Origin: a virus
Virus record (IMG/VR): IMGVR_UViG_3300042874_000086
Location: 1-64,000 of that record
Direction: 5' to 3' (one strand)
DNA length: 64,000 nucleotides
Each line of letters opens with the position of its first letter. The stretch's first letter is position 1. The notes under the pieces were generated by a model. That model saw only the letters and a list, made by a program, of their open reading frames with translations. It made no database searches and was not told the DNA's origin. Below, one piece after another: positions 1 to 17,913 of this stretch. The position numbers and the translations under genes were made by a program.

Positions 1-147
1 AGATGACCATGCAGATGACCATGCCGCTGACCGTGCCGCTGAATCTGCAGCTGAATCTGCCGCTGACCATGCAGATGACCATGCCGCTGACCGTGCCGCT
101 GACCGTGCCGCTGAATCTGCAGCTGACCGTGCCGCTGACCGTGCAGC
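1..147 (-). repeat. 12-bp-period coding tandem repeat (SAAR/SAAD/SAAW/SSAW units)
   Basis: Repeated gctgaccgtgcc / gctgaatctgca / gatgaccatgc units. Confidence 0.9.
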
Positions 148-456
148 TAATCTAATATCATCATTTCCTGTTTCAAGCCAATCGATAATTAAGTCATAAT
201 TTTCTTCGGAGCAATATGGTTTAATCTTATCAATATTCTGCATTGCACAAAATCTGGCAAACGCACCTATCTCTTCATTGTGCCCTTCTATAGCCCTAAA
301 ACACCAAATTGCGTCTTCGATTCCATTGCTATTTAAAATGGTTAAAAGTGATAGTTCTTCATCGTCTGCCTTAGTTTTTCCAAGTGTTTTTAAAAGCTTT
401 TCCCATCCGTCTCTGCAGGGAGAATGCTCTCTTATTTTATTTAGTGTTGTTTTCAT
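1..456 (-). CDS. Early phage protein with Ala/Ser/Arg/Trp C-terminal repeats (3' end runs off the window)
   Basis: Not in the ORF track. ATG at 456 after an AAAGGA RBS; reads MKTTLNKIREHSPCRDGWEKLLKTLGKTKADDEELSLLTILNSNGIEDAIWCFRA...AARSAARSAADSAAWSSAW and stays open to base 1. Confidence 0.85.
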   Translation of the reverse strand, partial: MKTTLNKIREHSPCRDGWEKLLKTLGKTKADDEELSLLTILNSNGIEDAIWCFRAIEGHNEEIGAFARFCAMQNIDKIKPYCSEENYDLIIDWLETGNDDIRLAARSAARSAADSAARSAARSAAWSSAWSAADSAADSAARSAAWSSAWSS

Positions 457-487
457 AAGTAGTCCTTTCCACGTACGTCAAAATCAA

Positions 488-718
488 TTACCCCCGAACT
501 TGAATAACACGTTTAATAATATGCTGCAACCTTGAAGTAATACTGGAGTATTTTTCAAGGTTAAACCATTGTTCTGTGTTATTCTCACGAAACATTTGAG
601 TATTGTATGAATACACAATATAAGTATCCCCATGCCATACAGCATACGCAGAATTTCCTGTGAACACCTGACGATTTTTTATAAGGTCTGGAATTTGTTT
701 ATAATTAACCTGTGCCAT
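488..718 (-). CDS. Hypothetical early protein
   Basis: 76-aa ORF with TAAAGGGGT RBS; phage-like YSYNT motif. Confidence 0.8.
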   Translation of the reverse strand: MAQVNYKQIPDLIKNRQVFTGNSAYAVWHGDTYIVYSYNTQMFRENNTEQWFNLEKYSSITSRLQHIIKRVIQVRG

Positions 719-852
719 TTTAAACCCCTTTATTTAATAGTTCCATGTGGAACTTTTTCTATTATTAGAGGGAGTTGAATTTTTCCCTTTAACACCCTAA
801 TTATACCCTATTCAAATAACATTATAACCCCCTTAGGAATTTTGAGAATCCA

Positions 853-1119
853 TTAAAGAGGGGTCTCGAATTTTAAGGTTTCTATAAGAGATTCAAACGG
901 AATTTCAGCGAACCCATAAAACTCATCTTCAACATAATTTGCAATAAAAGACGTGCAACATAAATCAACCTTAAAGTATTCTTGTAAATCCTTTAAAGAC
1001 CAACAACAAATCCCCCAAGAATTGTCTGAATCACCCACTGGACGAGGCGAAAACTTAGCAGTATACTGTATAGCGTCCACCGCAACACTTTCCACAATTT
1101 GATAATACATGTGAACCAC
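853..1119 (-). CDS. Hypothetical early protein (start probably ATG at 1110)
   Basis: ORF track; AAAGGGGTG RBS precedes ATG 1110. Confidence 0.7.
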   Translation of the reverse strand: MVHMYYQIVESVAVDAIQYTAKFSPRPVGDSDNSWGICCWSLKDLQEYFKVDLCCTSFIANYVEDEFYGFAEIPFESLIETLKFETPL

Positions 1120-1360
1120 CCCTTTATCACTTTAAAAAGTTCCACATAGAACTTTTATTACTCTCTAAATCCCCCCAAAAATTCCTTTTAGGTGGGTACT
1201 ATAGTACCTTTTAAGGCACCTTTAAACCCTACATGATTTATTTTCCACTCTCAAAGGTAACTTCAAAGTACTTTCGTATACCGAGGTTACCTTGAAGTTC
1301 CCTTGAAGGACTGTGAACCTCACCATAAAAATTTTTTTATACGGTTTTCCGTATGTTTTG

Positions 1361-1489
1361 TCAGAACCCTAAGTGGTCGTTTAAGGTTTTTTTAAGGTTA
1401 CCTTCAAATTTGTTTAAGGTTACTAAAATTACCTTTAAAGTTACCATTAAGGTTACTCCAATTATTATCCAAGTTGCTACAAACTCCAT
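1361..1489 (-). CDS. 42-aa membrane peptide MEFVATWIIIGVTLMVTLKVILVTLNKFEGNLKKTLNDHLGF
   Basis: Below the ORF-track cutoff; same TAAAGGGGTTTAAAATG start context as the gene at 718; N-terminal hydrophobic helix. Confidence 0.65.
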   Translation of the reverse strand: MEFVATWIIIGVTLMVTLKVILVTLNKFEGNLKKTLNDHLGF

Positions 1490-1530
1490 TTTAAACCCCT
1501 TTATGTTACCTTAAAAGTTCCATGTGGAAC

Positions 1531-1767
1531 TTATTTGCTTACCGTGATAGACTTCAACTCTGCCTTTAGGGTACGTGCAAGTTCCCCTCGGTACCCACTA
1601 GCATTACTTAAAAAGCGCAATACGACACTATAAGTCCCATCAAGACCGTAGTCGTCCCTCTCCATCGCTTTAAGGTAAGGTTCAGCATACACTGATACCT
1701 TTTTCCAATCCTTTCTAATTGCTCGAGCGATACGTGCAAAGGCTATTCTTTCTGATATTTCGTTCAT
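1531..1767 (-). CDS. Hypothetical early protein
   Basis: 78-aa ORF with GGGGT RBS. Confidence 0.8.
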   Translation of the reverse strand: MNEISERIAFARIARAIRKDWKKVSVYAEPYLKAMERDDYGLDGTYSVVLRFLSNASGYRGELARTLKAELKSITVSK

Positions 1768-1903
1768 CTTAACCCCATTATCGTTTTGTTATATTTGTCT
1801 TGCAAATTTAGAAAGTTCCACATGGAACTCTCAAGGAACCTTCTAAATTTTCAGAAGGCACTATAAATCTTTTGTAACCGTATTATTTATATTTGCATAG
1901 CAA

Positions 1904-1932
1904 ATTATAACATAACCTTAAGGAAATGTCAA
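1904..1932 (-). promoter_or_regulatory. Sigma70-type early promoter
   Basis: TTGACA-17 bp-TATAAT with extended -10 TG on the minus strand. Confidence 0.85.
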
Positions 1933-2135
1933 GGTAACTTATGAGTGACTAAAACTTTCTAAATTTTGTAGAACTTCCTAAAAATTACTAGAAAGCGGAT
2001 AATGTATAACACATGGTATACATTATGTTCCTACAATAGTTCTATATGGAACTTTTTTATTCCGTTATAGACGACTAGGAAAACAGAAACGGTTTCTGTG
2101 ATTAACCGTTATTAACCATCTAGGTATGGTGGGCG

Positions 2136-2753
2136 TTACCCCACCAAATCAAAAAATGAATTTTCGTATGCTAGAATGTGTGCTTCGATTTTGTCTCGCA
2201 TAACATCGGTTAATGTCCCTTTGGTTTCCATCTCTCTTAGTGTCTCTCTCATTAGTGCGACGCTCTCATCAAATAATGTGAGAGTGGGATACTTTGCCGT
2301 ACTGACAACGGCGTTACGTTGTACGTTCAATACTTCGCGAACGTCCTCTACGGTATCCGCTTTAACGTCCTCTACGGTATCCTCTACGGTATCCGCTTTA
2401 ACGTCCTCTACGATACCCGCTACGGTATCCGCTTTAACTGGTGACTTAATCCCTCTTAGATAGTCATACAATTTAACAAAGCCGATTGTATTACAATAGC
2501 TAATGTCTATTTTATCGGCATAAGTGCGTAATATATTAATTGACGCAAACATTTTCTTAATATAACCTTCACTCCACACGTCAGCTAACTGAAGTTTAAT
2601 TTCTTTTAACTCTTCAGTACCGAGCACGGTATCACCGGCTACTGTTAACGCCCACTTAGACCCGCTCATTTCTGTTTTAGAAATCGCTACTGCAATTTTT
2701 TTTGCTTCTGCTACCGCTTTAATAACGTGTTGCGCCGTTGTTGTTGTTTTCAT
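2136..2753 (-). CDS. Hypothetical early protein with internal KADTVEDV repeats
   Basis: 205-aa ORF, TAAAGGGGT RBS, first gene after the promoter at 2796-2824. Confidence 0.85.
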   Translation of the reverse strand: MKTTTTAQHVIKAVAEAKKIAVAISKTEMSGSKWALTVAGDTVLGTEELKEIKLQLADVWSEGYIKKMFASINILRTYADKIDISYCNTIGFVKLYDYLRGIKSPVKADTVAGIVEDVKADTVEDTVEDVKADTVEDVREVLNVQRNAVVSTAKYPTLTLFDESVALMRETLREMETKGTLTDVMRDKIEAHILAYENSFFDLVG

Positions 2754-2795
2754 CTTTAACCCCTTTATGTTGTTGTTGCTTTTAATTCGAGTGTC

Positions 2796-2824
2796 ATTAT
2801 AGTACGATAAAAAAATAATGTCAA
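2796..2824 (-). promoter_or_regulatory. Sigma70-type early promoter
   Basis: Perfect TTGACA-17 bp-TATAAT on the minus strand. Confidence 0.88.
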
Positions 2825-3065
2825 GGGCATAACCTCCTTTTATAAAAAGTTCTATATGGAACCCCCTCTATCTTCAATAGTAAAAATAAATACTAACTAA
2901 CAACTTAAAAGATACTTAAATGTAATATAAACGTGACCTTAAGGTGACATCAGTGCTACCTGTGGTTACACTTAAGGTGTGTTTAAGGTTACTTTTATGT
3001 TAAAAGGGGGGAGGTTAAAGTTCCTTTAAGGTTACCAGTCGGCGCACCCAGCAACTCACAAAATA

Positions 3066-3908: not shown

Positions 3909-4721
3909 TTATTTATCCTCCACCATTACTGAAAATTGTTTTACTCTACGCCCATCATTTTCTGAAGTGTACCCAAAAGGATTACAAAGCAATCTTTTAC
4001 CCAACTTCTTATTGCCTAGTACTATTTCAGCTGGGTCGTGTACATGACCAAATACCCATACTTGTAATTTGGAATCTCTTTGGAGGTCCTCTTCATAATC
4101 AAAACCGAAAAACATACTGCTTTCGTAGTTTCTGAACTTAATATTTACGTGCGTCGGATTAATGGTAGGACGTACGTGCGTCATCATTATATCACACTTG
4201 TTATATAATGCCGCTACTTTTTTTATCTCTTCTTCAAAGGTTTCTAAAAAGGAATCACAAGCCTTGTAAGGATAATCATTCAAACAGCTTTTCCAAAATC
4301 CCTCTTTTACCTCGTTATCAGCATCATAACCTTGATATTTACCATCATACCACCCATCAGCGCCCCCTACGATGACGCCTTCGATATCCACGCTGGTACC
4401 ATCCAGTACAATAAACCCCGCTCTTTCGTATTCTAAAGTACTAATATCTTTCTTATTAACCCCATAAATTTCTCTACTAGTTTTATGAAGATACCTATCA
4501 TGGTTTCCGAGTACCAGTATAATCTCTTTATAACCATACTGTTGTTTAATAGACTGAAGGGTATTGATGTTTTGTTGTAGGTCATGGCCAATATCTCCAG
4601 CAATTAATAGATATTGACTTTCAGCAGTAGAAAATAAATCACAAAGTGTAGTACCCTGTTTTGAACCAAAAGTTAAATCAATATGTAAGTCGCTTACATA
4701 ATCGAACTGTACTTGTCTCAT
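3909..4721 (-). CDS. Calcineurin-like metallophosphoesterase
   Basis: SDLH, AGD, GNHD, TH and GHVH motifs. Confidence 0.92.
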   Translation of the reverse strand: MRQVQFDYVSDLHIDLTFGSKQGTTLCDLFSTAESQYLLIAGDIGHDLQQNINTLQSIKQQYGYKEIILVLGNHDRYLHKTSREIYGVNKKDISTLEYERAGFIVLDGTSVDIEGVIVGGADGWYDGKYQGYDADNEVKEGFWKSCLNDYPYKACDSFLETFEEEIKKVAALYNKCDIMMTHVRPTINPTHVNIKFRNYESSMFFGFDYEEDLQRDSKLQVWVFGHVHDPAEIVLGNKKLGKRLLCNPFGYTSENDGRRVKQFSVMVEDK

Positions 4722-4760
4722 ACTATCTCCAATTTTAAATTGGAAGTATAATAACTAAAT

Positions 4761-5159
4761 TTATATTAAAGAAATATTAACTAAATTACGGTATTTTTGA
4801 ATGTCAGGGGAATCTTCATAAGCCCACCCACCAGCTATCTTTACAGCAGAATATATAATATAGGCCTTAAATGAGTTAGTACCTTCTCCTATCATGGCCC
4901 TATAAAAAATTAAATCACAGTGCTTTTTGGAAAATAATTTAGAGGAATATAAAGCGTCATGTAGACAAGCAGCCTTTTGGTAACCACCAGTCATAGGACT
5001 CCCTATAATACTCCATAAAACCTGTGGGATTGACGCACCATCAAAATCAAACCCAGGGTAAACAGTAATTATCATAGAATCTTCTTGGTAGACTAGGGGG
5101 GATGTTAAAATAAATGTCTGTTCCCCAGCAACCTCTAGCGTTAATTTAGTTAGAAACAT
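4761..5159 (-). CDS. DUF1353-like protein
   Basis: PGFDFDGASIP and AACLHDALY motifs. Confidence 0.85.
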   Translation of the reverse strand: MFLTKLTLEVAGEQTFILTSPLVYQEDSMIITVYPGFDFDGASIPQVLWSIIGSPMTGGYQKAACLHDALYSSKLFSKKHCDLIFYRAMIGEGTNSFKAYIIYSAVKIAGGWAYEDSPDIQKYRNLVNISLI

Positions 5160-5211
5160 ATTATACCTTTAAGAGAAATCTGATTAATTATCGTATAACG
5201 ATAACCATATT

Positions 5212-5442
5212 ATGAGGAGTACTATAGACAGTATCATCGAGGAACTTTTTAAAGATAATGTTAAAGTACCTGAAAAGACACTTAAAAGGTATAAATTACC
5301 TATTAACGTACCTTACGAGAGCCTTTATATATTTAAAAGTACCCTCCCTAGTAAACATTGTATGTTTGATGAACTTTCTATACAAGATTGGGAAGAACTG
5401 TTTAGAAAAAATAGACAAAAGATAGAGGAACATTATGTATAA
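5212..5442 (+). CDS. Hypothetical protein
   Basis: Overlaps the next + ORF and fills the gap between minus-strand genes. Confidence 0.55.
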   Translation: MRSTIDSIIEELFKDNVKVPEKTLKRYKLPINVPYESLYIFKSTLPSKHCMFDELSIQDWEELFRKNRQKIEEHYV

Positions 5443-5749
5443 ATTAAAAATTGATAACTTTTCTTTACCCTCATACATTACAATAACTAATATAGAATAC
5501 ATCGGTAATAAAGTAAGTATCAAAGGTTACACTATAAACCCCCTTGAGTGTACGGCTGAAGAAACTTTAAATTATCTTAGTGGGTTAGTAGAGGAAATCG
5601 TGATGATTAACGAGGTTAAAAGGGGAGTATATGAAGTATATATCACCCTTTTAGTGGCTTATGGGGTATACCTAGATAATAATTTAATAGGTATCACCAG
5701 TAAAGGGGATACTTTTAGGGTTACTAAAGAGTACTTACCGCCTCTTTAA
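5435..5749 (+). CDS. Hypothetical protein
   Basis: GAGGA RBS, 104 aa. Confidence 0.65.
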   Translation: MYKLKIDNFSLPSYITITNIEYIGNKVSIKGYTINPLECTAEETLNYLSGLVEEIVMINEVKRGVYEVYITLLVAYGVYLDNNLIGITSKGDTFRVTKEYLPPL

Positions 5750-7007
5750 GTATATCTCCTAAAGAATCAGCGGTAAACTTATCCACCCGCTGCCAATTTG
5801 TAGCAAATCTTGGAAGAAATAAACTATAATTCCCTTTTTCATCCTTAATAAGGTCGTTGAATAACACCTCAGCAGGTAATCCAACACATTTACTGATATT
5901 ATCTGTAAACCAATCCCTATCTAAGTCGGTGCGTGGGTTTACATTAACCACTACCTTTTTATCAATACTTTCACAAGTAATTGAACCCACCTTACCTTTG
6001 TTTTTGCCCTCTCCATCAGTAAAACCAACAATAGTTAAGGTACAAGAACAAATTGCCTTTAGTTTACCCCAATTCTTACTTCGTTTCCATTCATAAGGAG
6101 TATTCGTCTTAATAATTACTCCCTCCCCACCATCTTTGCGTATATTTTCATAAAATTTCTTGATATCATCCTCGGTATCTGCCATGGTTTGCTCAACAGG
6201 TACAAAAGGGTACCCTAAAATTCCACTAATCCCAAGCACCTCGTGCGCTCTTTCAAAAGCTAATAATAATGATGTTTTACTTACCCACTCCTCTAAAGTT
6301 AAAAAGTCAAATACATGATATTCAATTTTATCATCAATCTCTTTCTTGTACCCAGATTTCATAAGGCTATTAATCTTACCCGAAGTTTTCTGTCGTAACT
6401 CTCCAGACATTAATAATTCCCCATCTAATACAAAATTGTCATTAGGAAACTCTATTAATATATCTTTAAGTTTCTTTAGGGGTATCGTATTCCCTGTTCT
6501 AGTAAGAAAAGTAATTATCCCATTCTTCTTTATAGTAATACAACGTATACCATCCAGCTTCTCTTGTACTAGTAAGGGCATAATTAAATCACCGGCAGGC
6601 TCCGCTAACATACAATCAAAAGTGGGGATTAAGTTTGGTATTATTTTATTAATAGATTTAGCAGCCATCCCAATACTCAAAGACTTAGTAAGGATACTTA
6701 TAAATACCTTCTGAGTCTGCTCTGGTACTTTTACTAAAAAAGTACTAACCATAAGGTGGTCTGCACTATTAACATTTTTGGAGGATAACACATTTAGTAT
6801 GTTTAAGAAACCATTAACCTCATCTTCTGCATAATTAATACTGCTGTTTACCGAGATTTTTTGTATTCCATAAGTTAGGTATGGGTTAAAGGCATGATAT
6901 AAAAGAGCCTGAAGGTCTTCGTTGTCTTTGTGGGTGGCTAAAATAAGCTCTTTTGCCTTATTCCCCGAGGTATTTTCTATCTTTTTGATAATTTCAATAG
7001 CTGTCAT
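5724..7007 (-). CDS. lig: ATP-dependent DNA ligase
   Basis: EKLDGIR adenylation motif, LDGEL, EGVIIK, WGKLK, SLFLPRF. Confidence 0.95.
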   Translation of the reverse strand: MTAIEIIKKIENTSGNKAKELILATHKDNEDLQALLYHAFNPYLTYGIQKISVNSSINYAEDEVNGFLNILNVLSSKNVNSADHLMVSTFLVKVPEQTQKVFISILTKSLSIGMAAKSINKIIPNLIPTFDCMLAEPAGDLIMPLLVQEKLDGIRCITIKKNGIITFLTRTGNTIPLKKLKDILIEFPNDNFVLDGELLMSGELRQKTSGKINSLMKSGYKKEIDDKIEYHVFDFLTLEEWVSKTSLLLAFERAHEVLGISGILGYPFVPVEQTMADTEDDIKKFYENIRKDGGEGVIIKTNTPYEWKRSKNWGKLKAICSCTLTIVGFTDGEGKNKGKVGSITCESIDKKVVVNVNPRTDLDRDWFTDNISKCVGLPAEVLFNDLIKDEKGNYSLFLPRFATNWQRVDKFTADSLGDILKEAVSTL

Positions 7008-7040
7008 GGTAGCTCCTTAGTGTTTAAGGAGCATTTTACA

Positions 7041-7310
7041 CTATAGTTTATTAAATTTAACTTTAACAGAGCTGGGATATGTAATAAAAGCAATAAGTAA
7101 ACCAGAGGCTGCTGAAATAAGACCCCCCAACCATAAATAAATACCCAACTTAAATCCCGCCCACAAAGAAGCACCTACGGTAATACCTAAACCACCCCAG
7201 CTGTATAAAAAATAACCAAAAGCAGACAGTACAGACACTATCATGGAGATACCTCCAGATAAAATAAGTAACCCCGCTACAAATAATATAGTAAATTTAA
7301 TCATAATCAA
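7041..7310 (-). CDS. Small membrane protein
   Basis: Two to three hydrophobic segments. Confidence 0.75.
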   Translation of the reverse strand: MIMIKFTILFVAGLLILSGGISMIVSVLSAFGYFLYSWGGLGITVGASLWAGFKLGIYLWLGGLISAASGLLIAFITYPSSVKVKFNKL

Positions 7311-7728
7311 AAACTCCTTCTAGTTGTTCTACACAAATACCAGCACCCACCAAATAATCAACCCCAGTAGGGTCCGTGTAGGTATCGTGGTAATAAACTG
7401 TAGTAATTCCGGATATCTCTATCAACTTAGCACACTGAATACAGGGTGAGGTTGTAATAAAAATAGAACACCCCTCGGTAGCTATACCCCTTTTAGCCGC
7501 ATTTCCTATTAGGTTAGCCTCGGCATGATGGACTATATCTTTGGTAACCCCCTCGTGTTCACAGCAATTATCCCTACCAGGAGAAGTACCATTATATCCA
7601 GATAAAAGTGGTCTATTGTCGGGGCTAACTAATAAAGCCCCTACCTTACGGCGTTTACAATGACTCAACTCCGTATAATTAAAAGCAGACTTCATATGAG
7701 CACGTTGAAATTTAGTTGCAATACCCAT
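7297..7728 (-). CDS. dCMP deaminase
   Basis: HAEAN and SPCIQC zinc motifs, GYNG. Confidence 0.93.
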   Translation of the reverse strand: MGIATKFQRAHMKSAFNYTELSHCKRRKVGALLVSPDNRPLLSGYNGTSPGRDNCCEHEGVTKDIVHHAEANLIGNAAKRGIATEGCSIFITTSPCIQCAKLIEISGITTVYYHDTYTDPTGVDYLVGAGICVEQLEGVFDYD

Positions 7729-7975
7729 AGATATCCTCCGACTTTAAAATATGGTACTCCGTATCAGCAAGCTTAATAATAGCACCGCTATATTTACCAA
7801 AAAATACGGTAGCTCCTACAGGGATACTAGTATCACTTTTAATTACTTTACCACTACTTGGTAACTCTTTGGTTTCCGTGGATTGTAAAATAATACCGGA
7901 CGAGGTTTCTTTCTCAACCTTAGTAGGCTCTACCAATAAATTGGTGTTGGTTGGAATAAACTCAGTTGCTTTCAT
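7712..7975 (-). CDS. groES: Co-chaperonin GroES
   Basis: EKETSSGIIL mobile loop; VFFGKYSG...YHILKSEDI. Confidence 0.92.
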   Translation of the reverse strand: MKATEFIPTNTNLLVEPTKVEKETSSGIILQSTETKELPSSGKVIKSDTSIPVGATVFFGKYSGAIIKLADTEYHILKSEDIYGYCN

Positions 7976-8942
7976 TATTATCCATTTCTATAAGTTTAAG
8001 TTTAGCTTCTGCCAACCTACGAATTTCCCACTGTGCGTGGTTATCTAGGCGTAAATCGAAGAAGTTTTTAAGGCTGTGGTTGTCAAAACCAGACCAAACA
8101 AGTGTATACATAGCTTGAGGAATAATTCTCCTAGCCTCTTGGGGTAATACACCAGCAGCTATAGCAACATTATAATGATTTACACAAAGCGTTTCAAGAG
8201 TTTCCGTAGACAATTCATAGTGTTTTGAAACTTCCTCTGAAGAATCTTCGTAGTGAGATACAAAGTTTTTCATACGTTCCGAGTTGTAAAACTCAAAATC
8301 AACCTTTTTACCAGATACATAACGACGGCTCATCTCTTGCCAGTTAGCTTTTCGGTGTCGAATGTACTGGGCACGGGTATTTGTATCAATGTAGGATAAG
8401 AATACAGAATACTTCTCCAGCATCAACTCACATTCCGTCTCACTGTTGAAATACTTACGGATGTCCTCTACTTTTTTACCTTCAATAATATCAAATGCAG
8501 ATAGGGTAGCATGGTCTGAACATAAAGCACGGTAGTTAGTTAACAAATAATCACCAATAAACGTACCAAAGGTTAAAATATTAGGAAATTGACGGTCAGT
8601 ATCACTTTCTGTTACATAATTATAACAATTTAAGATATAATCTACACGTTCTTTACTTAGTAGTACTGGAATAAACTCAAAACTACTAGAAGGTAACCCC
8701 AAAGACTCCTGCTCAAGTCTATTAAACAATGTTTCACGACCCACCGCATTAGGGTTAGCATAACAAGCAGCCGCTACTAGGGTTACTGCCTCTACTCTAG
8801 ACTCCTCATTCATATTGGCTTTAGAGAAGTCAAAATAAGTTACCTCTGCAATATTATCTGCAAAAATATTAGACTCTGTCCCCCCTTTTATAACATACTT
8901 TAACTCTTTTTCTTTAATTTGTTGAAGATATTCCATCAACAC
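7962..8942 (-). CDS. thyX: Flavin-dependent thymidylate synthase
   Basis: RAQYIRHR...QEMSRRYV, EARRIIP, HAQWEIR. Confidence 0.92.
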   Translation of the reverse strand: MLMEYLQQIKEKELKYVIKGGTESNIFADNIAEVTYFDFSKANMNEESRVEAVTLVAAACYANPNAVGRETLFNRLEQESLGLPSSSFEFIPVLLSKERVDYILNCYNYVTESDTDRQFPNILTFGTFIGDYLLTNYRALCSDHATLSAFDIIEGKKVEDIRKYFNSETECELMLEKYSVFLSYIDTNTRAQYIRHRKANWQEMSRRYVSGKKVDFEFYNSERMKNFVSHYEDSSEEVSKHYELSTETLETLCVNHYNVAIAAGVLPQEARRIIPQAMYTLVWSGFDNHSLKNFFDLRLDNHAQWEIRRLAEAKLKLIEMDNNESN

Positions 8943-9181
8943 CCCTTTTTTATATTAACTGGTATGAGTTTTGACATACCTAAATCTTTATATCTTTTAA
9001 AAAATACAATAACATTTGACTCGTTAACCCACACTTTAGATAAAGTAACCAAAGAAGGGTCACTACAGTAAATAACTAAAGTATCATCTATGTAACTAGA
9101 CGCAACTTTAGTACACTCGCAAGTAGAATCTAAAGCTATTGTTAAGCACTCATTGCAGAGTACACATAGTTTTGCTATCAT
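8936..9181 (-). CDS. Hypothetical Cys-containing protein
   Basis: CVLC...CEC; coupled to neighbours. Confidence 0.65.
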   Translation of the reverse strand: MIAKLCVLCNECLTIALDSTCECTKVASSYIDDTLVIYCSDPSLVTLSKVWVNESNVIVFFKRYKDLGMSKLIPVNIKKGC

Positions 9182-9483
9182 GCAACCTTCAACTCTACGT
9201 CAAACACTTTTTGGAGTTTTTTTACAGTAAGGGAGTTAAGAAATGTCATAAACTCTGTATCTAGTTCTGTAATACGTTTAACCGCGGACTCTACGGAGGT
9301 CATGGCATTATTATATTTATCTGCATGTAGCAATTTTCGTAACTTAATTAAAGCTTGCGGGAGATTAGCATGGTACGTTACATCTTTAGCAATCTCAGTA
9401 CCTGCACTATTTTGTCCTAGCTTATATACCTTAAAATTAAGGTTATCTACTTTTTCTACGACGTAATTCTCATAAATTAACAT
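9178..9483 (-). CDS. Hypothetical protein
   Basis: 101-aa ORF with AGGA RBS. Confidence 0.75.
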   Translation of the reverse strand: MLIYENYVVEKVDNLNFKVYKLGQNSAGTEIAKDVTYHANLPQALIKLRKLLHADKYNNAMTSVESAVKRITELDTEFMTFLNSLTVKKLQKVFDVELKVA

Positions 9484-9527
9484 GGTGTATCCTATTTTTG
9501 TAATAACTAATTATATTTAGGTAATGC

Positions 9528-9926
9528 TTAAGATACGCTTACACGGTCTTTATTATGAAGTAATCTGTGACAGTTTGCACAAAGTAACATGCACTTCTCA
9601 ACTTCTTGCATGAATATATGAGGAGAGCGATTACTATTTTTAGATAGGCCGAAAGATTTTAGTTGGGGATTAATATGATGAAAGTCAAATACAACTGAGT
9701 TGGTGCCATCATATTGTAGACCACAATGGTTACATTTACCCCCTAAGTGGAGTATAGCATTATGAGTATTTTCTTTTCTTTTAGTTTTTTGGGAAGAACT
9801 CCTACATTTTCTACAGTAGGGGGAATGGTCTATACGTCCGTTGGGTTGTTTAGTAAAACAGCTTAGAGGGAGTTCCTCTAAACACTTTTTACAGACTTTA
9901 GTACTCACCCTTGACAACTCACACAT
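9528..9926 (-). CDS. HNH endonuclease (putative homing endonuclease)
   Basis: CKKC/CRKC, CNHC, FDFHH...LLCANCHRLLH. Confidence 0.88.
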   Translation of the reverse strand: MCELSRVSTKVCKKCLEELPLSCFTKQPNGRIDHSPYCRKCRSSSQKTKRKENTHNAILHLGGKCNHCGLQYDGTNSVVFDFHHINPQLKSFGLSKNSNRSPHIFMQEVEKCMLLCANCHRLLHNKDRVSVS

Positions 9927-12625
9927 TCTGACTTATCAATCTTATGCTTCATGGCCTTATTCTGGGATTGTATATAGTACAGCCCATGAATCCACTCATC
10001 TTTAAAGGCTATATCATGAATCCTAGCAATTTCTTCTTCGGTCTCATCTGCAGTAAAGAATAGATTTACTGATTGTCCTTGGTCGACGTTAGGCTGACGG
10101 TGAGAAGCCATTAGCAGGATAGACTCTTGGGGTATTTCAAAGGCAGTCCTAAATATATCTCGCTCGTGTTGAGTAAGCCATCCCTCCCCCTGAACAGACC
10201 CTTGGTCATCTGCTATACGCTTCATAACCTCCTCTGTGTATACCCCACGCTCTTTCATAATGTCTAACAGCACTGGGTTAATTCTATAAACAGTGCCCCC
10301 AGCGGTATCTTGCTCATACACATTAGCGAATACTGGCTGTATTCCCTCACTAACTCCCCACTGGATTACTGATGTGGACTTAGTGGGGGGTAGTGCAAGT
10401 CTATGAGAACAGCGTTCCCCAGTTCCTACCATCCATTCAGGCTCTCCCAACTCTCTTGCAAGTAACCTTGACGCTTCTAAAGTTTGCTCATTTAGCATTT
10501 TGAAAAGCGATTGATTAAACATAATAGATTGTAAATCACCAAACACCCAAGACTTCGTTTGGTAATAGGTAGATTGACCAAGAACTCCCAATCCTTGTGC
10601 ACGGGACTTCTCAGTAAATGCAATAACTCTTTCAAAACCACTTTCTTGTTTTGCTTTAATCAACATATCTGAAATTACTGCGTCTAAAAAGATAGTAGCA
10701 ATCTGTGGTGTTTTAGTACCAACCCACTCATCGTATTTTGCAATATTTAGAGAGGATAACACGCAAGTAAATGAATGATTTTCATCAGACATTAAAGCAA
10801 TCTCTGAACAGTTTCCAGTAAGTACTCCATTAAACATTAATTTATTAACTAAAGGCTCTGTGCCACAATAAGTAGGGGCTGATTTTCCCTCATCCTCAAC
10901 AGACACTACTTGTACAAACTGTCGAGCCTGTCTTTGGTACTCTCTCCTAGTTGGGACAACCCTTGATGTCTGCAACCCTAAGTCTAACAAAGTATTCAAC
11001 TCTGACCCAGCAATTAATAATCTATAAGTTTGTTTTGTCCAATACTGTTTATACTCCCCAGTACCATTATTTGTAGGTAACCAACTATATCCTGCGTCAG
11101 CTCCTTTCGATATAGTACTATGTACCCCCAACTCTTGTAGGAGAAGTAGAACTTCTTTAAGGAATGATAATTCAATACTGGCTACTTGAATACTCTCTGT
11201 TCCATTATTATTAGTCAAAGTACCATCTGCGTCTAAGTACCCAGATACCCATAGCAACCTATCCTCTACACAAAAGCTACTATTAGGGACAAAAAACTTA
11301 TCTTCTAGTATACCCGCAGGGTATTGTAGGTTTAGTATCCTGCCTTCTTTTGAGTAGCTTACGGAGTAAAACCCAGTAAATCTAGATACTAGTGTTTGTT
11401 TGTTATCGTGTAGTGATATCCTTGGTTTATTAGACTTTTTATATACTGTACCATCCCCCGAGTGAAACCCATTTACGTACGCAAGGGGTAACCTACTATT
11501 ACCATGAGTTATAGGCTCTAAAGAGAATTTAATTAGCTTGTCCCCAGGTACCAAGTCAATCGTACGTTTTTCTACCTGTTTACTATAACCGTCCATTATA
11601 TACCACTTATGGTAAGGGGTAGCCTCAATAGTAGTATAGTTACCCAAAGTAACTTTAATAACAGCCTGACATTCTGATGTTTTAAATAAATCAGTTAAAG
11701 ACCACTCTTTTCCATTCCAACACTCCAAAGACTCCCCAACCACTTGTTCAATATTTATATACCCATAGTTTTTTGTAAGAACTTTGGTATCTCCAGTTAC
11801 ACATAAGTTTGAGTGGCGTACTTTAAACCCCCTGTCTTTATACACTTTAGGTGCGTGTCTATTAACCTTATCTAAAAAGAAGAAGTAACCCTTACCTTTA
11901 GTTGCCTTAGTCTTTAACATACGCTCCCAAAGATAGTCAGCGTGGTCTGGGTCTCTATCAAATAAAGTCTCAAACTCATCCGTGATATTCCAACCAATAT
12001 TCCAACCCATATCATCAGCCACTAACTGGTCTACAAGCTCATCAAAGTCATCGTGTAGGGGGTTTAGGTACATACCACAACTTCCTCTACGTGAATTTCC
12101 TTGTGATACGTCCTCCATATCTCTTACTACCCCAGAAGCAAACTGCATGATACCATTTGCAGTCCCCCCTTTTGAAATAGGTGTCCCACGGGAGCGGATA
12201 GGGTCTAAACAAGTAGAGGTTCCGTAACCACGTTGAGTTAGCTGTGCCATCTCTTTTCTAGCTGTATAAAAAGACTCAATAGAGTCTCCAACGTAAGTAC
12301 CAGAGCAACTAATAGGATGTCCTCGGTTATTCCCCATATTTGTTAATACAGGAGTGGAGGGAGATAACCAACCATTCCACATCTCAGTAAAGAAACACTC
12401 CTCCCAACTACTATAACCAAAATCAGAGGGTATATTAAAGGTAGTTAACCCAGCCGCCCTTTTAGCAATACGTGTGTACATATCCTTAGGGGTTTCGGCT
12501 GTATCCAAGTAACTTTGATTAACCAGCATTTGGTAACCAGCTGTAGTCAGCCACTGGGGAGCTAATCCATCTTGTTGTAGTTGTTTTCTTTTATGAGATA
12601 ATCTCTCGTATTTTGTTTTACCCAT
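9905..12625 (-). CDS. nrdA: Ribonucleotide reductase class Ia alpha subunit with intein
   Basis: SPSTPVLTN, PISC, SNL/CSEI, PPTKSTS, DQGQSVN, LYY, C-terminal CVSCQG; likely start MGKTKY at 12625 overlapping the nrdB stop. Confidence 0.95.
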   Translation of the reverse strand: MGKTKYERLSHKRKQLQQDGLAPQWLTTAGYQMLVNQSYLDTAETPKDMYTRIAKRAAGLTTFNIPSDFGYSSWEECFFTEMWNGWLSPSTPVLTNMGNNRGHPISCSGTYVGDSIESFYTARKEMAQLTQRGYGTSTCLDPIRSRGTPISKGGTANGIMQFASGVVRDMEDVSQGNSRRGSCGMYLNPLHDDFDELVDQLVADDMGWNIGWNITDEFETLFDRDPDHADYLWERMLKTKATKGKGYFFFLDKVNRHAPKVYKDRGFKVRHSNLCVTGDTKVLTKNYGYINIEQVVGESLECWNGKEWSLTDLFKTSECQAVIKVTLGNYTTIEATPYHKWYIMDGYSKQVEKRTIDLVPGDKLIKFSLEPITHGNSRLPLAYVNGFHSGDGTVYKKSNKPRISLHDNKQTLVSRFTGFYSVSYSKEGRILNLQYPAGILEDKFFVPNSSFCVEDRLLWVSGYLDADGTLTNNNGTESIQVASIELSFLKEVLLLLQELGVHSTISKGADAGYSWLPTNNGTGEYKQYWTKQTYRLLIAGSELNTLLDLGLQTSRVVPTRREYQRQARQFVQVVSVEDEGKSAPTYCGTEPLVNKLMFNGVLTGNCSEIALMSDENHSFTCVLSSLNIAKYDEWVGTKTPQIATIFLDAVISDMLIKAKQESGFERVIAFTEKSRAQGLGVLGQSTYYQTKSWVFGDLQSIMFNQSLFKMLNEQTLEASRLLARELGEPEWMVGTGERCSHRLALPPTKSTSVIQWGVSEGIQPVFANVYEQDTAGGTVYRINPVLLDIMKERGVYTEEVMKRIADDQGSVQGEGWLTQHERDIFRTAFEIPQESILLMASHRQPNVDQGQSVNLFFTADETEEEIARIHDIAFKDEWIHGLYYIQSQNKAMKHKIDKSECVSCQG
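10811..11803 (-). mobile_element. Intein (331 aa) with LAGLIDADG endonuclease in NrdA
   Basis: SNL|CVTGDTKV...ATPYHKW...GFHSGDG...SGYLDADG...NGVLTGN|CSEI. Confidence 0.95.
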
Positions 12626-13629
12626 TATTTTACTCCTAGGAAAGGTTTTCTTGAAAATCCATCTAAAGACCACCCACGGCGATACTGGTTAGTACCACTA
12701 GCAAAAAAGTCATGTACTTTAATGGAGTTGGCTCCTTTATAGAACCAATCAGCTATTGGATTTTCTTTTATTTCATATAAAGGCTCCATACCAAGGTCAG
12801 ATAGAACTTGGTTAGCCCTAGACCTAATGAAATTTTTCAACTGAGAAGCAGTTATATCATTAATAGCTGCTTCCCCTGGGAATCCATAGTCAATTACGGA
12901 GTCTTCGTGGGCTACAATCTTCTCTGTTAATTTTCTTACTGCTTTTTCGTGCTCCACTAGGGGGAAACTTCCATATACTGTTGGGTACTCTTCAATATAA
13001 ACATTGTGTAAGTAAGTAGCGAAAACACCATGAATAACTTCATCATTTACTACATAGTCTACACCAGTTAGTGTATTAGGAATCATTTTATGACCATTAG
13101 CTTTAAAAGATTTCAACATAGCAAAATTACTAAATAAGAGTACTTGCTCAATTAAAGCTACGGTAGCTAAAGATAAAGGCTTATCCTTGTCCAAGTTACT
13201 CGTAATTTTGTTTAGGAAGTCTAACTTCTCTTTAAGAACTAATATAGTTTGTTGGTTTTTAGCAGTATCTTCTGGGTCTATATTAAGTACATCCGACATC
13301 TTTTGATAAAAGAAAGCGTGTACAGACTTTTCCATAGCAGCTATTTGTGTGCAAGCCCCGTCAATCTCTGAGTGAGGAAACCAGTTAGCTATACTACTCC
13401 ACACATCTCCTACTTTTTGTTCAATTTCTACAAACAACTGCAGAGTAAGTGTGATTAAGTGATAAGACTCTCTAGACATATTATGACGGTAGTCTTGTAT
13501 ATCATTCTCTACTTTAATTTCTTGAGCAAACCAGTTTATATCCTGTTGTTGTTCCATTAATTCTTTAGCAAATGGGTACAAATATAAACCGAACATACTA
13601 TTTGGAGTCTCTATAGGTAATTTAACCAT
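12625..13629 (-). CDS. nrdB: Ribonucleotide reductase beta subunit
   Basis: EKSVHAFFY, EQVLLFSNF, DEVIH, HDFF. Confidence 0.93.
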   Translation of the reverse strand: MVKLPIETPNSMFGLYLYPFAKELMEQQQDINWFAQEIKVENDIQDYRHNMSRESYHLITLTLQLFVEIEQKVGDVWSSIANWFPHSEIDGACTQIAAMEKSVHAFFYQKMSDVLNIDPEDTAKNQQTILVLKEKLDFLNKITSNLDKDKPLSLATVALIEQVLLFSNFAMLKSFKANGHKMIPNTLTGVDYVVNDEVIHGVFATYLHNVYIEEYPTVYGSFPLVEHEKAVRKLTEKIVAHEDSVIDYGFPGEAAINDITASQLKNFIRSRANQVLSDLGMEPLYEIKENPIADWFYKGANSIKVHDFFASGTNQYRRGWSLDGFSRKPFLGVK

Positions 13630-13677
13630 GTAATTAATCCTTATATTTTTATAATTATACAGTAAATAACCTTAATA

Positions 13678-13977
13678 CTACTTAAGTAAGGACTGTAGTA
13701 TTCCCTGTGTTATGTTATTGCTTGGTACCTTAAAAGTTGAAGTATCAAAGGCTTCAGGTTGGTAGGTTATATTATATATAAAAGTAGTCGCTGACTCCAT
13801 ATCAGGGAAGGTATCATCTATACATAAGATAGGCACTAATGAAGAGTCTCGTAAGATAATGGAGGTAACACTATTATCGTTATCTAAACTGAAATCCCAA
13901 CTTAAATTTTTATTAAAAACTAATGTTTTTACGTATAAAAACATTTCAGAATTATTCATTTTGTTCTTCCCATCCAT
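13678..13977 (-). CDS. Hypothetical protein
   Basis: ORF within the operon. Confidence 0.65.
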   Translation of the reverse strand: MDGKNKMNNSEMFLYVKTLVFNKNLSWDFSLDNDNSVTSIILRDSSLVPILCIDDTFPDMESATTFIYNITYQPEAFDTSTFKVPSNNITQGILQSLLK

Positions 13978-14198
13978 GAGGTTTTTCTCTCGGCTAACTT
14001 AATAAAATAGTTAGTAGAACCACCAAACCTATCTGTAATAAGCTCCTTAGAACACTCTACGTAAGTTCGTAGTTGTAAAATGTTATAAATAGCTTTATCG
14101 GTAAGTCCATAAGAATCCGAGAGGGTTGATTGAGAGCTACCAGAAAGGTAGTCTAAAATGATATTAGTAATATCTTTACATAGTAGCTCTCGTTTCAT
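13956..14198 (-). CDS. Small HTH-like protein
   Basis: SQSTLSDSYGLTDKAIYNIL helix-turn-helix pattern. Confidence 0.6.
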   Translation of the reverse strand: MKRELLCKDITNIILDYLSGSSQSTLSDSYGLTDKAIYNILQLRTYVECSKELITDRFGGSTNYFIKLAERKTSWMGRTK

Positions 14199-14201
14199 TA
14201 T

Positions 14202-14732
14202 TTATCTTTGAATGTCATCTGTAAAGTTATCAAGAAGCGCTTGTAGCTCTACCTCTGGTCCTACAAAACCTTCTGGTTTTTTTACTTTACCGTTCTCGTC
14301 CAAATCGTTACCTTTTTCATAGTTCTTTTTAGTAACTACCTCAAGTCCCTTAATAATTAAATCTGGAATTCCTTCCATACTACTAATGGGAAGTGCTTGT
14401 ACCAAATACTTAGAAAATACAATATACATATCAACAAAGTGTGATGAATATTTATTCATGAAAGCTAACATATCATCAGAGTCGTCGGCATGCTGCATCC
14501 ACTTTGTGTAAGTACCACATAATACAAAGGCATAGTCACATACGGCGTCTAACATATCAACCGCTGAGGTAGCTGATAAAAATTCATGGTACTCTTCTAT
14601 CAACATGTCCTGTTCTAGGTCTTTACTAAAATGCAAGTTGTTTCTGTCTAGATTCCACTGACGAATTTGTGGGTAAAACTGTAAAACAATAGCATCAACT
14701 AGTTGGTTTTTTTCCAAGATTGGTAACAACAT
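14202..14732 (-). CDS. MazG/PRA-PH-like NTP pyrophosphohydrolase
   Basis: EEYHEF...DAVCD...ENGKVKKPEGFVGPE. Confidence 0.85.
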   Translation of the reverse strand: MLLPILEKNQLVDAIVLQFYPQIRQWNLDRNNLHFSKDLEQDMLIEEYHEFLSATSAVDMLDAVCDYAFVLCGTYTKWMQHADDSDDMLAFMNKYSSHFVDMYIVFSKYLVQALPISSMEGIPDLIIKGLEVVTKKNYEKGNDLDENGKVKKPEGFVGPEVELQALLDNFTDDIQR

Positions 14733-14755
14733 ATCATCTCCTTCTTTTTCTTGTT

Positions 14756-14784
14756 ATTATATCAAAATAATAAATTAATGTCAA
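14756..14784 (-). promoter_or_regulatory. Sigma70-type promoter for the nucleotide-metabolism block
   Basis: TTGACA-17 bp-TATAAT on the minus strand. Confidence 0.85.
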
Positions 14785-14785
14785 G

Positions 14786-15046
14786 TTAAATACTAATATT
14801 TTTTAACCCAGTAAATTCTTTTGAGTCATACAACTCTCTTTGTACCCAAATAACTAAAGGAACCTCCTTAGTAAAGTCTTTCATGGCCTTCTTATTCCTA
14901 CGTAGCCCCATATTAGAACGTATTTTTCTTATGGAGACACCATTAGTACTACCAAGTATTTCCGCTAAGGCATTATCTGATAAATACAAGTAATTTTCTC
15001 TGAGAAAGCTTTTTTCAGCCTCTGAAAAGGGAGGTCTAATAATCAA
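14786..15046 (-). CDS. Small HTH/Myb-like DNA-binding protein
   Basis: FSEAEKSFLRENY..LSDNALAEILG..SIRKIRSNMGL. Confidence 0.7.
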   Translation of the reverse strand: MIIRPPFSEAEKSFLRENYLYLSDNALAEILGSTNGVSIRKIRSNMGLRRNKKAMKDFTKEVPLVIWVQRELYDSKEFTGLKNISI

Positions 15047-15498
15047 TTACGTATCTCCTTAAATTTCCACGTTAATATTTTATTATTATGTAATACACGT
15101 ATCCTCTCTTTATACCCAGTATTTAATTGTAAATCTCTAAATATTAATGTATCAAACATTGTATTTAACTTATCAACAGGTTTTATTTCAGAAGCTATAC
15201 CAACACCTTCCGGTATTTTAGAACATAAGTACTTGAACTCTTTTTCTAACTCATAAAAAGGCACTATTATAAATGTTCTTCCTTTGAATATTAATGTAAA
15301 TTGTTTAACAGCAAACTCCGGTATAAACTGACTCTTATACCTTAAGGTCATCTCCTCATATAGAGGTTTTAGGGCTAGAATAGTAGCTGTAGTGAGGTAT
15401 ACAGGGGTTAACCTCTTTTTATCTTTTTCAGATAGTCCTAGGGCTTCTATTTTATCTTTAATGGGATTAACTTCGTACCATTCATCAAAATTCAACAT
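15043..15498 (-). CDS. Hypothetical protein
   Basis: 151-aa ORF with AAGGA RBS. Confidence 0.75.
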   Translation of the reverse strand: MLNFDEWYEVNPIKDKIEALGLSEKDKKRLTPVYLTTATILALKPLYEEMTLRYKSQFIPEFAVKQFTLIFKGRTFIIVPFYELEKEFKYLCSKIPEGVGIASEIKPVDKLNTMFDTLIFRDLQLNTGYKERIRVLHNNKILTWKFKEIRN

Positions 15499-15502
15499 AC
15501 TT

Positions 15503-16894: not shown

Positions 16895-17385
16895 TTTTTA
16901 ACAATCTGTTGCAGTAGAGTAATATAAGTATCTTCATTAGTTCCAAGTTCTTTCTTCTCACGCTCTTTAAGCATAGAGTCTTGAATCATAATAAGGTCTA
17001 CTAAATCTTTCTTAGTAGCTTGAGCATAATCCCCGGCTAAGTCGTTCTCAATAGCATCAATTTTAGCTTTTATAACCTTGTCAAGAAGGCTGATACGGTA
17101 CTCTTTGGTCATATCGTATTGGGTACTTACAAGCTCTTGAATAAATGATTTAATATAATCCTTTGATAGAATACGCTTAACCTGCCCTACACTGATACCT
17201 AAGTATGTAGCAATACCAGTGCGGGTCTTACTATCTGCATAAAGCTCACATATAGCCCTCTCAAGTAAACTTAGGGGCTTACTTGGTAGTACTCCATCAG
17301 TAAATACAAGTTCCATTGATAATTTAGATTCTACTTCTGGGCTTAACTCATCAGGTATAGTAAGGCTATTTAATAAATCTTCCAT
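16891..17385 (-). CDS. Putative terminase small subunit
   Basis: HTH (IATYLGISVGQVKRIL); directly upstream of and overlapping terL. Confidence 0.7.
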   Translation of the reverse strand: MEDLLNSLTIPDELSPEVESKLSMELVFTDGVLPSKPLSLLERAICELYADSKTRTGIATYLGISVGQVKRILSKDYIKSFIQELVSTQYDMTKEYRISLLDKVIKAKIDAIENDLAGDYAQATKKDLVDLIMIQDSMLKEREKKELGTNEDTYITLLQQIVKK

Positions 17386-17386
17386 A

Positions 17387-17635
17387 TTAAACCCTATTTA
17401 ATTTATGTGTATATTCTGTAAATACATTCTCGTGCATAAAAGTAGCAAGCTCTGTAAACTCTTTAGGAGAAAGTTCTGGAATATTTTCAGCAAACTCTAA
17501 ACATACCTCACACCTAGTTGAAGTAACTACTCCGTCCTTAAGTGTAAAGGGTCTACCACAAACACACTCTAAAGTAACAAGCGGTCCCTCAATTGAGATA
17601 ATGGTATTAATTGGGGTATTCTTTAATTCTATCAA
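17387..17635 (-). CDS. Small Zn-ribbon protein
   Basis: CVC...CEVC; AGGAGA RBS with TTG start. Confidence 0.65.
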   Translation of the reverse strand: MIELKNTPINTIISIEGPLVTLECVCGRPFTLKDGVVTSTRCEVCLEFAENIPELSPKEFTELATFMHENVFTEYTHKLNRV

Positions 17636-17766
17636 TTTTAATCTCCTGTGTTTCTCTATACTATTATCGTAGCTAGAGAAAAAGTTTTAATGTTTTTGAC
17701 TCTATTAGTAGTAAATAATTAAATATCTTCTCTATAGTAATAATAGGTAAGTTAAGGTTCCTAAAA

Positions 17767-17883
17767 GGAGTAAACAAGTGATAGGTCTTGGGACAAGGTG
17801 TTTTTGACGTATTTATTATAGTTTATTAGTATATTTTCTACGTCAAAAACACCTTGTCCCAAGACCTATCACTTGTTTACTCC
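17767..17883. repeat. Perfect 45-bp inverted repeat with 27-bp AT-rich loop
   Basis: ggagtaaacaagtgataggtcttgggacaaggtgtttttgacgta (17767-17811) and its exact reverse complement (17839-17883). Confidence 0.97.
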
Positions 17884-17884
17884 A

Positions 17885-17913
17885 TTGACTTATTTTAATA
17901 AACCTGCTATAAT
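17885..17913 (+). promoter_or_regulatory. Sigma70-type promoter upstream of portal
   Basis: TTGACT-17 bp-TATAAT with extended -10 TG, abutting the inverted repeat. Confidence 0.75.

Follow-up and report, generated by a model that had tools for sequence, protein, structure and literature searches.

Repressors that stop transcription elongation at many sites of a phage genome, in addition to acting at operators, have a precedent in the stoperators of mycobacteriophage cluster A (PMC9283540). KorB has been reported to silence at long range from its operators (PMC11790492), phage phi29 carries five parS sites and uses Spo0J (PMC2731898), and capture of host DnaA has been proposed for the injection stop of T5 (10.1101/866236). 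For the chromosomal site parS, the consensus printed in PMC7383237 is TGTTTCAC-GTGAAACA, and in that source two bases of the 16-mer, the G of position 2 and the A of position 7, set parS apart from the Noc site. Little is understood of the way in which T5-like phages shut off their earliest genes, and PMC7472727 describes the mechanisms of T5 class switching as remaining unknown. Here we analysed a repeated 16-bp palindrome (AGTTCCATGTGGAACT at its leftmost copy) in the viral record IMGVR_UViG_3300042874_000086 of IMG/VR (G000 below), whose first 64 kb, referred to as the window, had received a first-pass annotation. In that annotation, six copies of the palindrome were read as a parS-like cluster that may capture host ParB, with a phage-repressor operator as the main alternative. 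Our analysis indicates that the palindrome most likely serves as a switch site that a protein, possibly host ParB, recognizes in double-stranded DNA, and places the former alternative, operators of a phage-encoded regulator, tentatively in first rank.

Number and placement of the palindromes

Re-reading of the window bore out both the letters and the coordinates of the six 16-mers (739, 1138, 1516, 1814, 2038 and 2848), and a check against the gene map confirmed that all six are intergenic. The accompanying remark that none was noticed elsewhere was wrong, given that the window holds a further copy at 38154 and that seven more lie beyond it. Allowing up to 3 mismatches to the consensus, 7 matches were obtained in the window against 0.37 expected, and 7 was reached in none of 100 shuffles. 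The whole-genome motif scan that the first-pass annotation had called for resulted in 14 unique sites in the record (the seven of the window together with 70921, 76012, 80800, 83978, 84746, 85092 and 85727), against a simulated mean of 0.003 in 300 simulations under a first-order Markov model.

The record is 89,672 bp long and ends with a second copy (86626-89672) of its bases 1-3047 that differs at a single base, position 3000, which leaves a unique genome of 86,625 bp. Because the six early sites fall within this terminal redundancy, virion DNA would carry them twice, raising the count from 14 to 20. The left copy of the terminal direct repeat begins inside a gene. The record is labelled linear and 48% complete by IMG/VR, and it looks like a whole 86,625-bp genome with a T5-style terminal repeat.

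Thirteen of the 14 sites are held by the minus-strand early region, which runs leftwards from about 2.8 kb across the repeat and down to about 70 kb, while the late gene blocks contain no palindrome except 38154, located within a plus-strand gene of the structural block. By manual reading 12 of the 14 sites are intergenic; a crude gene caller scored 10 as such, against an intergenic fraction of 0.11 (binomial p 2e-7). The two intragenic sites, 38154 and 70921, sit within genes that have homologues in sister phages. Reading along the minus strand, a start codon is found 19-27 nt beyond nine of the 14 sites, also where the spacer exceeds 100 nt, and these nine sites end directly upstream of an AAAGGGG-type ribosome-binding site. 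The arrangement found, one conserved site with many intergenic copies at or downstream of predicted promoters, is that of phage operators and stoperators.

An enrichment of lone half-sites was considered and rejected, as the 56 orphan hexamers are evenly spread and only 2 of them lie within 60 nt of a palindrome. Some palindromes do have an extra half-site beside them: GGTTCC located 5 nt upstream of site 1814, which forms a longer inverted repeat with the far arm of that site in a predicted fold (window 1814-1846), and AGTTCCAT located 15 nt upstream of site 85092 (record 85092-85135). In public sequencing runs about 50 positions vary in 20 kb, and one of them is in a palindrome (in its centre), which is too few for a selection test.

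Association with predicted early promoters in three phages

Seven minus-strand promoters were predicted by consensus match only, each scoring 11-12 of 12 against TTGACA-17-TATAAT, and four of the seven have a palindrome within 110 nt. The first two belong to the window (Table 1), while downstream of the third and the fourth, sites 84746 and 76012 follow at 42 and 37 nt, respectively. Sites that are not next to a promoter of this class are located between co-oriented genes, apart from the two intragenic ones.

Two true sister phages were available, with structural proteins 60-85% identical to those of G000: G001, a 45-kb fragment that breaks off 1.6 kb into the early region, and G002, of 83 kb. 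In G001 there are six sites with arms identical to those of G000 and with ATAT, ATAC or GTAT as their centres. G002 has three sites, with arms AGTTAC/GTAACT and with the centres ATGT, ACGT and one that is 2 bp longer; compared with G000 and G001, its arms are changed symmetrically from C/G to A/T. No such palindrome was found in G003, a distant relative. All three phages share the order of repeat array, palindrome, −35 of the first early promoter and gene 1, and the gap from the palindrome to this −35 is 23 nt in G000, 23 nt in G001 and 22 nt in G002. The arrays at the matching place in G001 (L013:3600-3720) and G002 (L143:18700-19000) are made of other units. In addition, G000 and G002 share a homologous order of a strong promoter, a gap of 42 or 34 nt, a palindrome, a ribosome-binding site and a WYL_2 gene, and the G001 counterpart of the gene for the 78-amino-acid early protein is likewise preceded by palindromes.

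The possibility that the palindrome itself is a promoter for a phage polymerase or sigma factor was rejected, because the gap to the gene starts is not fixed and strong host-type promoters are present. Half-site-like words were seen in the units of the arrays, namely AGTTAC in G000, GGAACC in G001 and AGTTCT in G002.

Further occurrences were sought among viral contigs. Motif scans returned 12 and 22 loci, among which only G001 has several palindrome copies. Among 80 scanned loci with rIIA-like homologues, no multi-copy occurrence of the motif was seen, and synteny was limited to G002 and G003. An exact-peptide search with the phosphoesterase for further relatives gave no match, and profile searches for them recovered only G001-like incomplete contigs.

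Conserved arms and a variable centre point to recognition as duplex DNA

We aligned the 22 sites of 16 bp (14 from G000, six from G001 and two from G002). Positions 2-4 and 13-15 are invariant in all 22, and the four centre bases vary by transitions only. The arms are identical across the 14 sites of G000 and the six of G001, though neighbouring proteins share only 45-69% identity. At pair 5/12, every one of the 20 sites of G000 and G001 has C-G, and the three of G002, the 18-bp one included, have A-T. Within a genome, arm variants are all one-sided, and none of the 10 in G000 is compensated. In the transcribed sense, pair 6/11 gives 15 Watson-Crick pairs, 2 G-U pairs and 5 mismatches, and pair 1/16 gives 2 G-U pairs against 2 mismatches. 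The first-pass annotation had noted that in the minus sense the mismatch would read as G-U at 1138 and as C-A at 2038 and 2848; this was borne out, the pair in question being 6/11.

These features were examined with respect to an RNA element, which would be a hairpin (6-bp stem, 4-nt loop) formed by early mRNA in its 5' leaders and intercistronic spacers. The hairpin would serve as a processing or stability signal, or else be recognized by a sequence-specific RNA-binding protein or nuclease through which early translation is controlled. Such an element would account for the spacing of nine sites ahead of start codons irrespective of spacer length, and it is in keeping with the sites that lie downstream of predicted promoters or between co-oriented genes. 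Pairing survives the symmetric 5/12 change between phages, the G002 site retains its fold despite two extra bases in the centre, and local folding predictions give the hairpin at most sites (−7 to −10 kcal/mol). However, the stem is conserved in sequence while the loop varies, the reverse of usual RNA-protein recognition, and within a genome no compensation is seen, with mismatches outnumbering G-U pairs in the transcribed sense. Moreover, the transcript of the first promoter does not include the site best conserved in position, which all three phages have 22-23 nt upstream of this promoter, and site 2038, like its counterpart in G001, is located between a terminator-like hairpin (by eye) and the next promoter. 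Folding z-scores were weak (−0.8 to −3.0, and +0.03 at 2848), and no Rfam family matched the palindromes, a tRNA being the only hit. An intrinsic terminator was rejected as well: a terminator scan flagged only 739 and 1516 of the six early sites, both on the plus strand, which is not transcribed, and the downstream flanks in G001, G002 and the contig L028 often have no T run. We therefore regard an RNA element as improbable.

Compensatory changes that keep the pairing while the sequence drifts, as expected of a structured RNA, were seen only in the between-phage 5/12 change. By contrast, conserved half-sites, a variable centre, the lack of within-genome compensation and a promoter-linked placement argue for a duplex-DNA operator over an RNA hairpin, in support of the preference for a DNA site already expressed in the first-pass annotation on the basis of the mismatches. 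The symmetric change at 5/12 also fits a reader and its sites changing together, of which the site half is visible here: C-G in G000 and G001 and A-T in G002.

A proposed operator regulon for early genes

From the copy number, the placement, the conservation pattern and the covariation between phages, we infer that the palindrome is read as double-stranded DNA by a reader of phage origin and that repression is the outcome. The sites would form a single regulon that covers the pre-early and early genes of this lytic, distantly T5-like phage. A dimer of two-fold symmetry would recognize two half-sites of 6 bp (AGTTCC in G000 and G001, AGTTAC in G002), centred one helical turn apart, and would tolerate a pyrimidine-purine centre. 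The reader would be a phage-encoded protein made after infection. With one site at about −66 of the first early promoter and the others downstream of host-type promoters or between small early genes, it could shut down transcription of the early block by host polymerase, combining repression with a block of elongation as the stoperators of cluster A mycobacteriophages do.

To find a reader, the genomes were searched at the domain level. The first-pass annotation had reported no parA or parB gene in the window, and the absence of parB was extended to the whole record: six-frame searches with ParB_N (PF02195) and HTH_ParB (PF17762) gave no match at E<=10 in G000, G001 or G002, while controls responded. 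Two small proteins with a helix-turn-helix (HTH)-like stretch are encoded at 13956-14198 and 14786-15046 and may be put forward as weak candidates for the site reader. Gene 1 had appeared as a DUF3102 lead in the Atlas, on 29% of one cluster with a score of 0.88 and a poor Atlas model; nothing usable came of it.

Several points weigh against an operator regulon with a phage-encoded reader. No reader protein was found, as HTH_3, ParB_N and HTH_ParB are all missing from the genome, and among 76 open reading frames scanned against Pfam and/or PHROGs no family is annotated as a transcriptional regulator, the phage sigma factor being the sole transcription-related match. The case for the two HTH-like candidates consists of sequence reading and one weak profile match. 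The match of the arms to parS would have to be a coincidence, which we estimate at about 1 in 1,000 for six arm positions before allowing for the many known sites available for comparison. One G002 site has two extra bases at the dyad, which a rigid dimer should not tolerate and a hairpin would. There is no single fixed promoter distance, and the 19-27 nt between nine of the 14 sites and a start codon suits a role at the RNA level too. Finally, the promoters are consensus matches only.

Should the reader be a phage protein, it would represent a new early-shutoff regulator with a ready specificity pair, AGTTCC versus AGTTAC. The regulon would be a compact one, consisting of one 16-bp site in about 14 copies, for which the place at the first promoter is conserved and a sister phage provides naturally altered arms.

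Likeness to parS and the possibility of host ParB capture

The parS likeness proposed in the first-pass annotation proved to be both real and specific. Each half agrees with the consensus of PMC7383237 at positions 2-4, 6 and 7, so that G2, T3, T4, C6 and A7 are kept and with them the two bases, G2 and A7, that distinguish parS; position 5 is C or A, and position 1 is A, not T. The phage arms equal the parS arms of four Acinetobacter genomes, each of which has 3-5 copies of GTTCCACGTGGAAC. In Pseudomonas aeruginosa, chromatin immunoprecipitation sequencing of ParB gave six occupied heptamers, including GTTCCAC and GTTCCAT (PMC5961200), and these two are the forms of the phage half-sites.

Such a likeness raises the possibility that the sites are degenerate parS sites that capture host ParB. 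Host ParB would nucleate on the 14 sites of the unique genome (20 in virion DNA), which are concentrated on the terminal repeat and the adjoining early region, and spread as a cytidine triphosphate (CTP) clamp, with the outcome that early genes are silenced or timed in a KorB-like manner or that entering DNA is positioned or held. The retained consensus bases, the arms shared with Acinetobacter and the two heptamers occupied in P. aeruginosa all favor this explanation, and the phi29, KorB and T5-DnaA precedents lend it plausibility. In two public runs (X2 and X4) site 1814 has a CG centre, which turns it into the exact 16-mer that is present once in each of the four Acinetobacter genomes, and one of the three G002 sites (1267) is CG-centred. 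In addition, the arm position that distinguishes the phages also varies among bacterial parS, being T in the consensus and C in Acinetobacter, and domain searches and the scan of 76 open reading frames recovered neither a phage ParB nor a phage regulator.

By contrast, a CG centre occurs in none of the 20 G000 and G001 reference sites, whose centres are CA, TG or TA, compared with 15 of 15 Acinetobacter sites. CpG is depleted genome-wide (observed/expected 0.62 in G000, 0.41 in G001 and 0.41 in G002), which softens this point and makes the missing CG centre weak evidence either way. Avoidance of the CG centre owing to restriction was rejected, since ACGT is not avoided (observed/expected 0.86). 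The outer bases (pair 1/16) are A/T in 18 of 22 phage sites but mostly T/A, and variable, in Acinetobacter parS; because this position varies there, ParB does not explain its conservation in the phages. Position 6, strictly kept in the ParB-bound heptamers listed in PMC5961200, is T or A in seven G000 half-sites. The G002 arm variant was found in none of 121 Moraxellaceae genomes, and an A at its variant position is not among the six variants given in PMC5961200. Besides, a promoter-linked, early-only placement is not required for ParB loading. On balance, capture of host ParB is a doubtful explanation of the sites. Its full form, in which a lytic T5-like phage without its own ParB puts about 20 weakened parS sites on the DNA that enters first and uses host ParB-CTP clamps as a pre-early timer or silencer or as a genome handle, that is, KorB-like silencing on a borrowed host protein, is in our judgement unlikely. 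Were the reader host ParB, the phi29 precedent, which is one of spore entrapment, would be widened to include gene control or DNA handling by a lytic phage of Gram-negative type, and host centromere proteins would be recruitable by invading DNA.

DnaA boxes were compared likewise. Only the last six bases of AGTTCCACA agree with TTATCCACA, and only in the nine G000 sites with a CA or TG centre, and an identity as DnaA boxes was rejected because the match to TT(A/T)TNCACA is only partial.

The phage and its terminal repeat

The phage is uncultured and distantly T5-like, and it looks lytic. Its capsid and large terminase have T5-like phages as their closest GenBank matches at 26-28% identity; no near relative was found among GenBank phages by DNA, and only distant ones by protein. 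It encodes ribonucleotide reductase, ligase, ThyX, dCMP deaminase, GroES, a family A polymerase, a helicase, a primase, an rIIA/rIIB-like pair and its own sigma factor (59580-60149).

This T5 likeness bears on a further explanation, in which the palindromes would be a structural or recombination signal of the DNA, either a cruciform or a hairpin of single-stranded DNA with a part in injection, in the priming of replication or in packaging, or a boundary that promotes shuffling of early cassettes. The sites do flank small, fast-evolving early genes that differ among G000, G001 and G002, and the presence of six of them in a terminal repeat beside a repeat array is reminiscent of T5's first-step-transfer region, described as having many repeats and palindromes (10.1101/866236); the T5-like capsid and terminase relatives point in the same direction. 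However, neither the fixed distance to the first promoter in three phages nor the two intragenic sites are explained by such a signal, and the same holds for the conservation of the arm letters, rather than of pairing alone, across about 50% protein divergence. An arm of 6 bp is also short for cruciform extrusion. This explanation is thus the least probable of those considered, and we give it very little weight compared with an operator regulon.

Small endolysin-like genes lie at 42689-43087 and 43744-44169 (132 and 141 amino acids, without a wall-binding domain). The single-domain 141-amino-acid endolysin together with the T5-like capsid and terminase suggests a Gram-negative, non-sporulating host. 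GATC occurs only three times in the 86.6 kb of G000 (observed/expected 0.02), a scarcity suggestive of host restriction directed against this sequence. The public runs with this DNA are cave, soil and biofilm metagenomes, and no RNA dataset is among the listed runs that hold phage DNA.

Feature coordinates and neighbouring elements

Table 1. Coordinates in the window of the palindromes, the predicted promoters and the neighbouring features.
Feature	Start	End	Strand	Remarks
Terminal redundancy	1	3047		Holds all six early sites
Palindrome AGTTCCATGTGGAACT	739	754		21 nt ahead of the start codon of minus-strand gene 488-718
Palindrome, one arm variant (pair 6/11)	1138	1153		Directly ahead of the ribosome-binding site of minus-strand gene 853-1119
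Palindrome	1516	1531		Touches the stop codon of gene 1531-1767; 27 nt ahead of the start of open reading frame 1361-1489
78-amino-acid early protein (phrog_13953)	1531	1767	-	54% identity over 56 amino acids to a G001 gene (tblastn); 56% in protein alignment
Palindrome	1814	1829		74 nt downstream of the −10 of predicted promoter 1932-1904; 47 nt ahead of the start of gene 1531-1767
Second early promoter (predicted)	1904	1932	-	12/12 match, TG before the −10; flanked by sites 2038 and 1814
Palindrome	2038	2053		105 nt upstream of the −35 of predicted promoter 1932-1904; past the end of gene 2136-2753; no ribosome-binding site adjacent
Gene 1, 205 amino acids, no family	2136	2753	-	First behind the first early promoter; positional counterparts in G001 and G002 (homology by eye)
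First early promoter (predicted)	2796	2824	-	12/12 match to TTGACA-17-TATAAT; ahead of gene 2136-2753
Palindrome	2848	2863		23 nt upstream of the −35 of the predicted first early promoter
Gene-free repeat array	2870	3530		Extends across the inner boundary of the terminal repeat; 12 direct TTTAAAGTTAC copies followed by an A15 tract
80-amino-acid candidate reader, HTH-like stretch	13956	14198	-	In G000, G001 and G002; absent from G003; best PDB profile match E 0.048
86-amino-acid candidate reader, HTH-like stretch	14786	15046	-	58-65% identical in G001/G002; absent from G003; best PDB profile E 0.49
Palindrome, two arm variants (seventh window copy)	38154	38169		Inside plus-strand gene 37813-38547

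Beyond the window, the rIIA-like (with a HATPase-type N-terminus) and rIIB-like early proteins, of 730 and 326 amino acids, are encoded at record 80825-83957 (L001:11153-14285), and a profile search gave at least 586 relatives in IMG/VR. A conserved non-coding stretch (aagacctatca..gtttactc) lies ahead of the rIIA-like gene, at about 84000-84050 in G000 (L001) and at L077:1900-1960 in G002, where the surrounding protein genes are only about 50% identical between the two phages. At record 75450-76065 (L001:5780-6393), about 600 nt without a convincing open reading frame are located between a strong promoter with palindrome 76012 and a tRNA-Arg(CCT); no Rfam match except the tRNA was obtained there.

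Repeated elements were also seen in other phages, two of which have palindromes of their own at early promoters or in 5' leaders, a point in favour of an operator role. L070 (IMGVR_UViG_3300035682_001576, 7946-19688), which has an rIIA-like gene, carries six copies of GTTGTAAAAATACAAC located 6-10 nt upstream of the −35 of consensus promoters. In L028 (IMGVR_UViG_3300044568_001494, 4441-13193), an unrelated phage of higher GC content that has only the 78-amino-acid protein in common with G000, there are twelve copies of another 16-bp palindrome with the core CTAACGCGTTAG, several of them between a −10-like TACAAT and the ribosome-binding site in repeated promoter-leader cassettes. Five further phages that share the 78-amino-acid protein (L022, L030, L031, L034 and L035) have 9-16 copies of the non-palindromic TCGTACCTTTGCA about 20 nt upstream of ribosome-binding sites, often directly past a terminator; this element may be a phage-specific promoter.

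Comparison with known systems

Chromosomal parS is, like the phage site, a 16-bp palindrome, with agreement at positions 2-4, 6 and 7 of the halves and, in Acinetobacter, over the arms. It differs in that the phage centre is CA, TG or TA rather than CG, the outer bases are A/T and the location is early and intergenic in a phage; the likeness is one of sequence. Phi29 is also a virulent phage that carries several host-centromere-type sites and no ParB of its own, with five sites described as serving genome entry into the prespore (PMC2731898). By contrast, the phage analysed here has 14 sites (20 with the repeat), a non-CG centre and a tie to early promoters and gene starts.

T5 likewise has its earliest genes in a terminal repeat, the inner edge of which is taken up by a large untranslated block made of repeats and palindromes; host DnaA sites have been proposed to act there (10.1101/866236). 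However, the repeat is 3 kb here compared with about 10 kb in T5, and the palindromes are spread between genes rather than packed in an array and are not DnaA boxes. They do not correspond to the paired DnaA boxes in inverted repeats of the untranslated block on which a T5-type injection stop would depend.

In RK2, about a dozen palindromes at varied promoter distances are reported to silence many operons of a mobile element through KorB (PMC11790492), which resembles the present layout. KorB is a plasmid-encoded ParB-family protein, whereas none of the three phages G000, G001 and G002 encodes a ParB_N or HTH_ParB domain. Plasmid or phage partition and KorB-type systems have a ParB-family protein of their own, and because no such protein is encoded here, the phage does not belong to the ParB/KorB systems. 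The stoperators of cluster A mycobacteriophages are likewise a short site in many copies, mostly intergenic within transcription units, with a promoter-proximal operator in addition (PMC9283540). The differences are that the sites here are palindromic, whereas PMC9283540 describes a monomeric repressor on an asymmetric sequence, and that this phage looks lytic and T5-like, with sites confined to the early region and no repressor gene found. Taken together, these comparisons suggest that the arrangement works most like the many-site repressor systems represented by stoperators and KorB operators, while in sequence the site resembles the parS of phi29.

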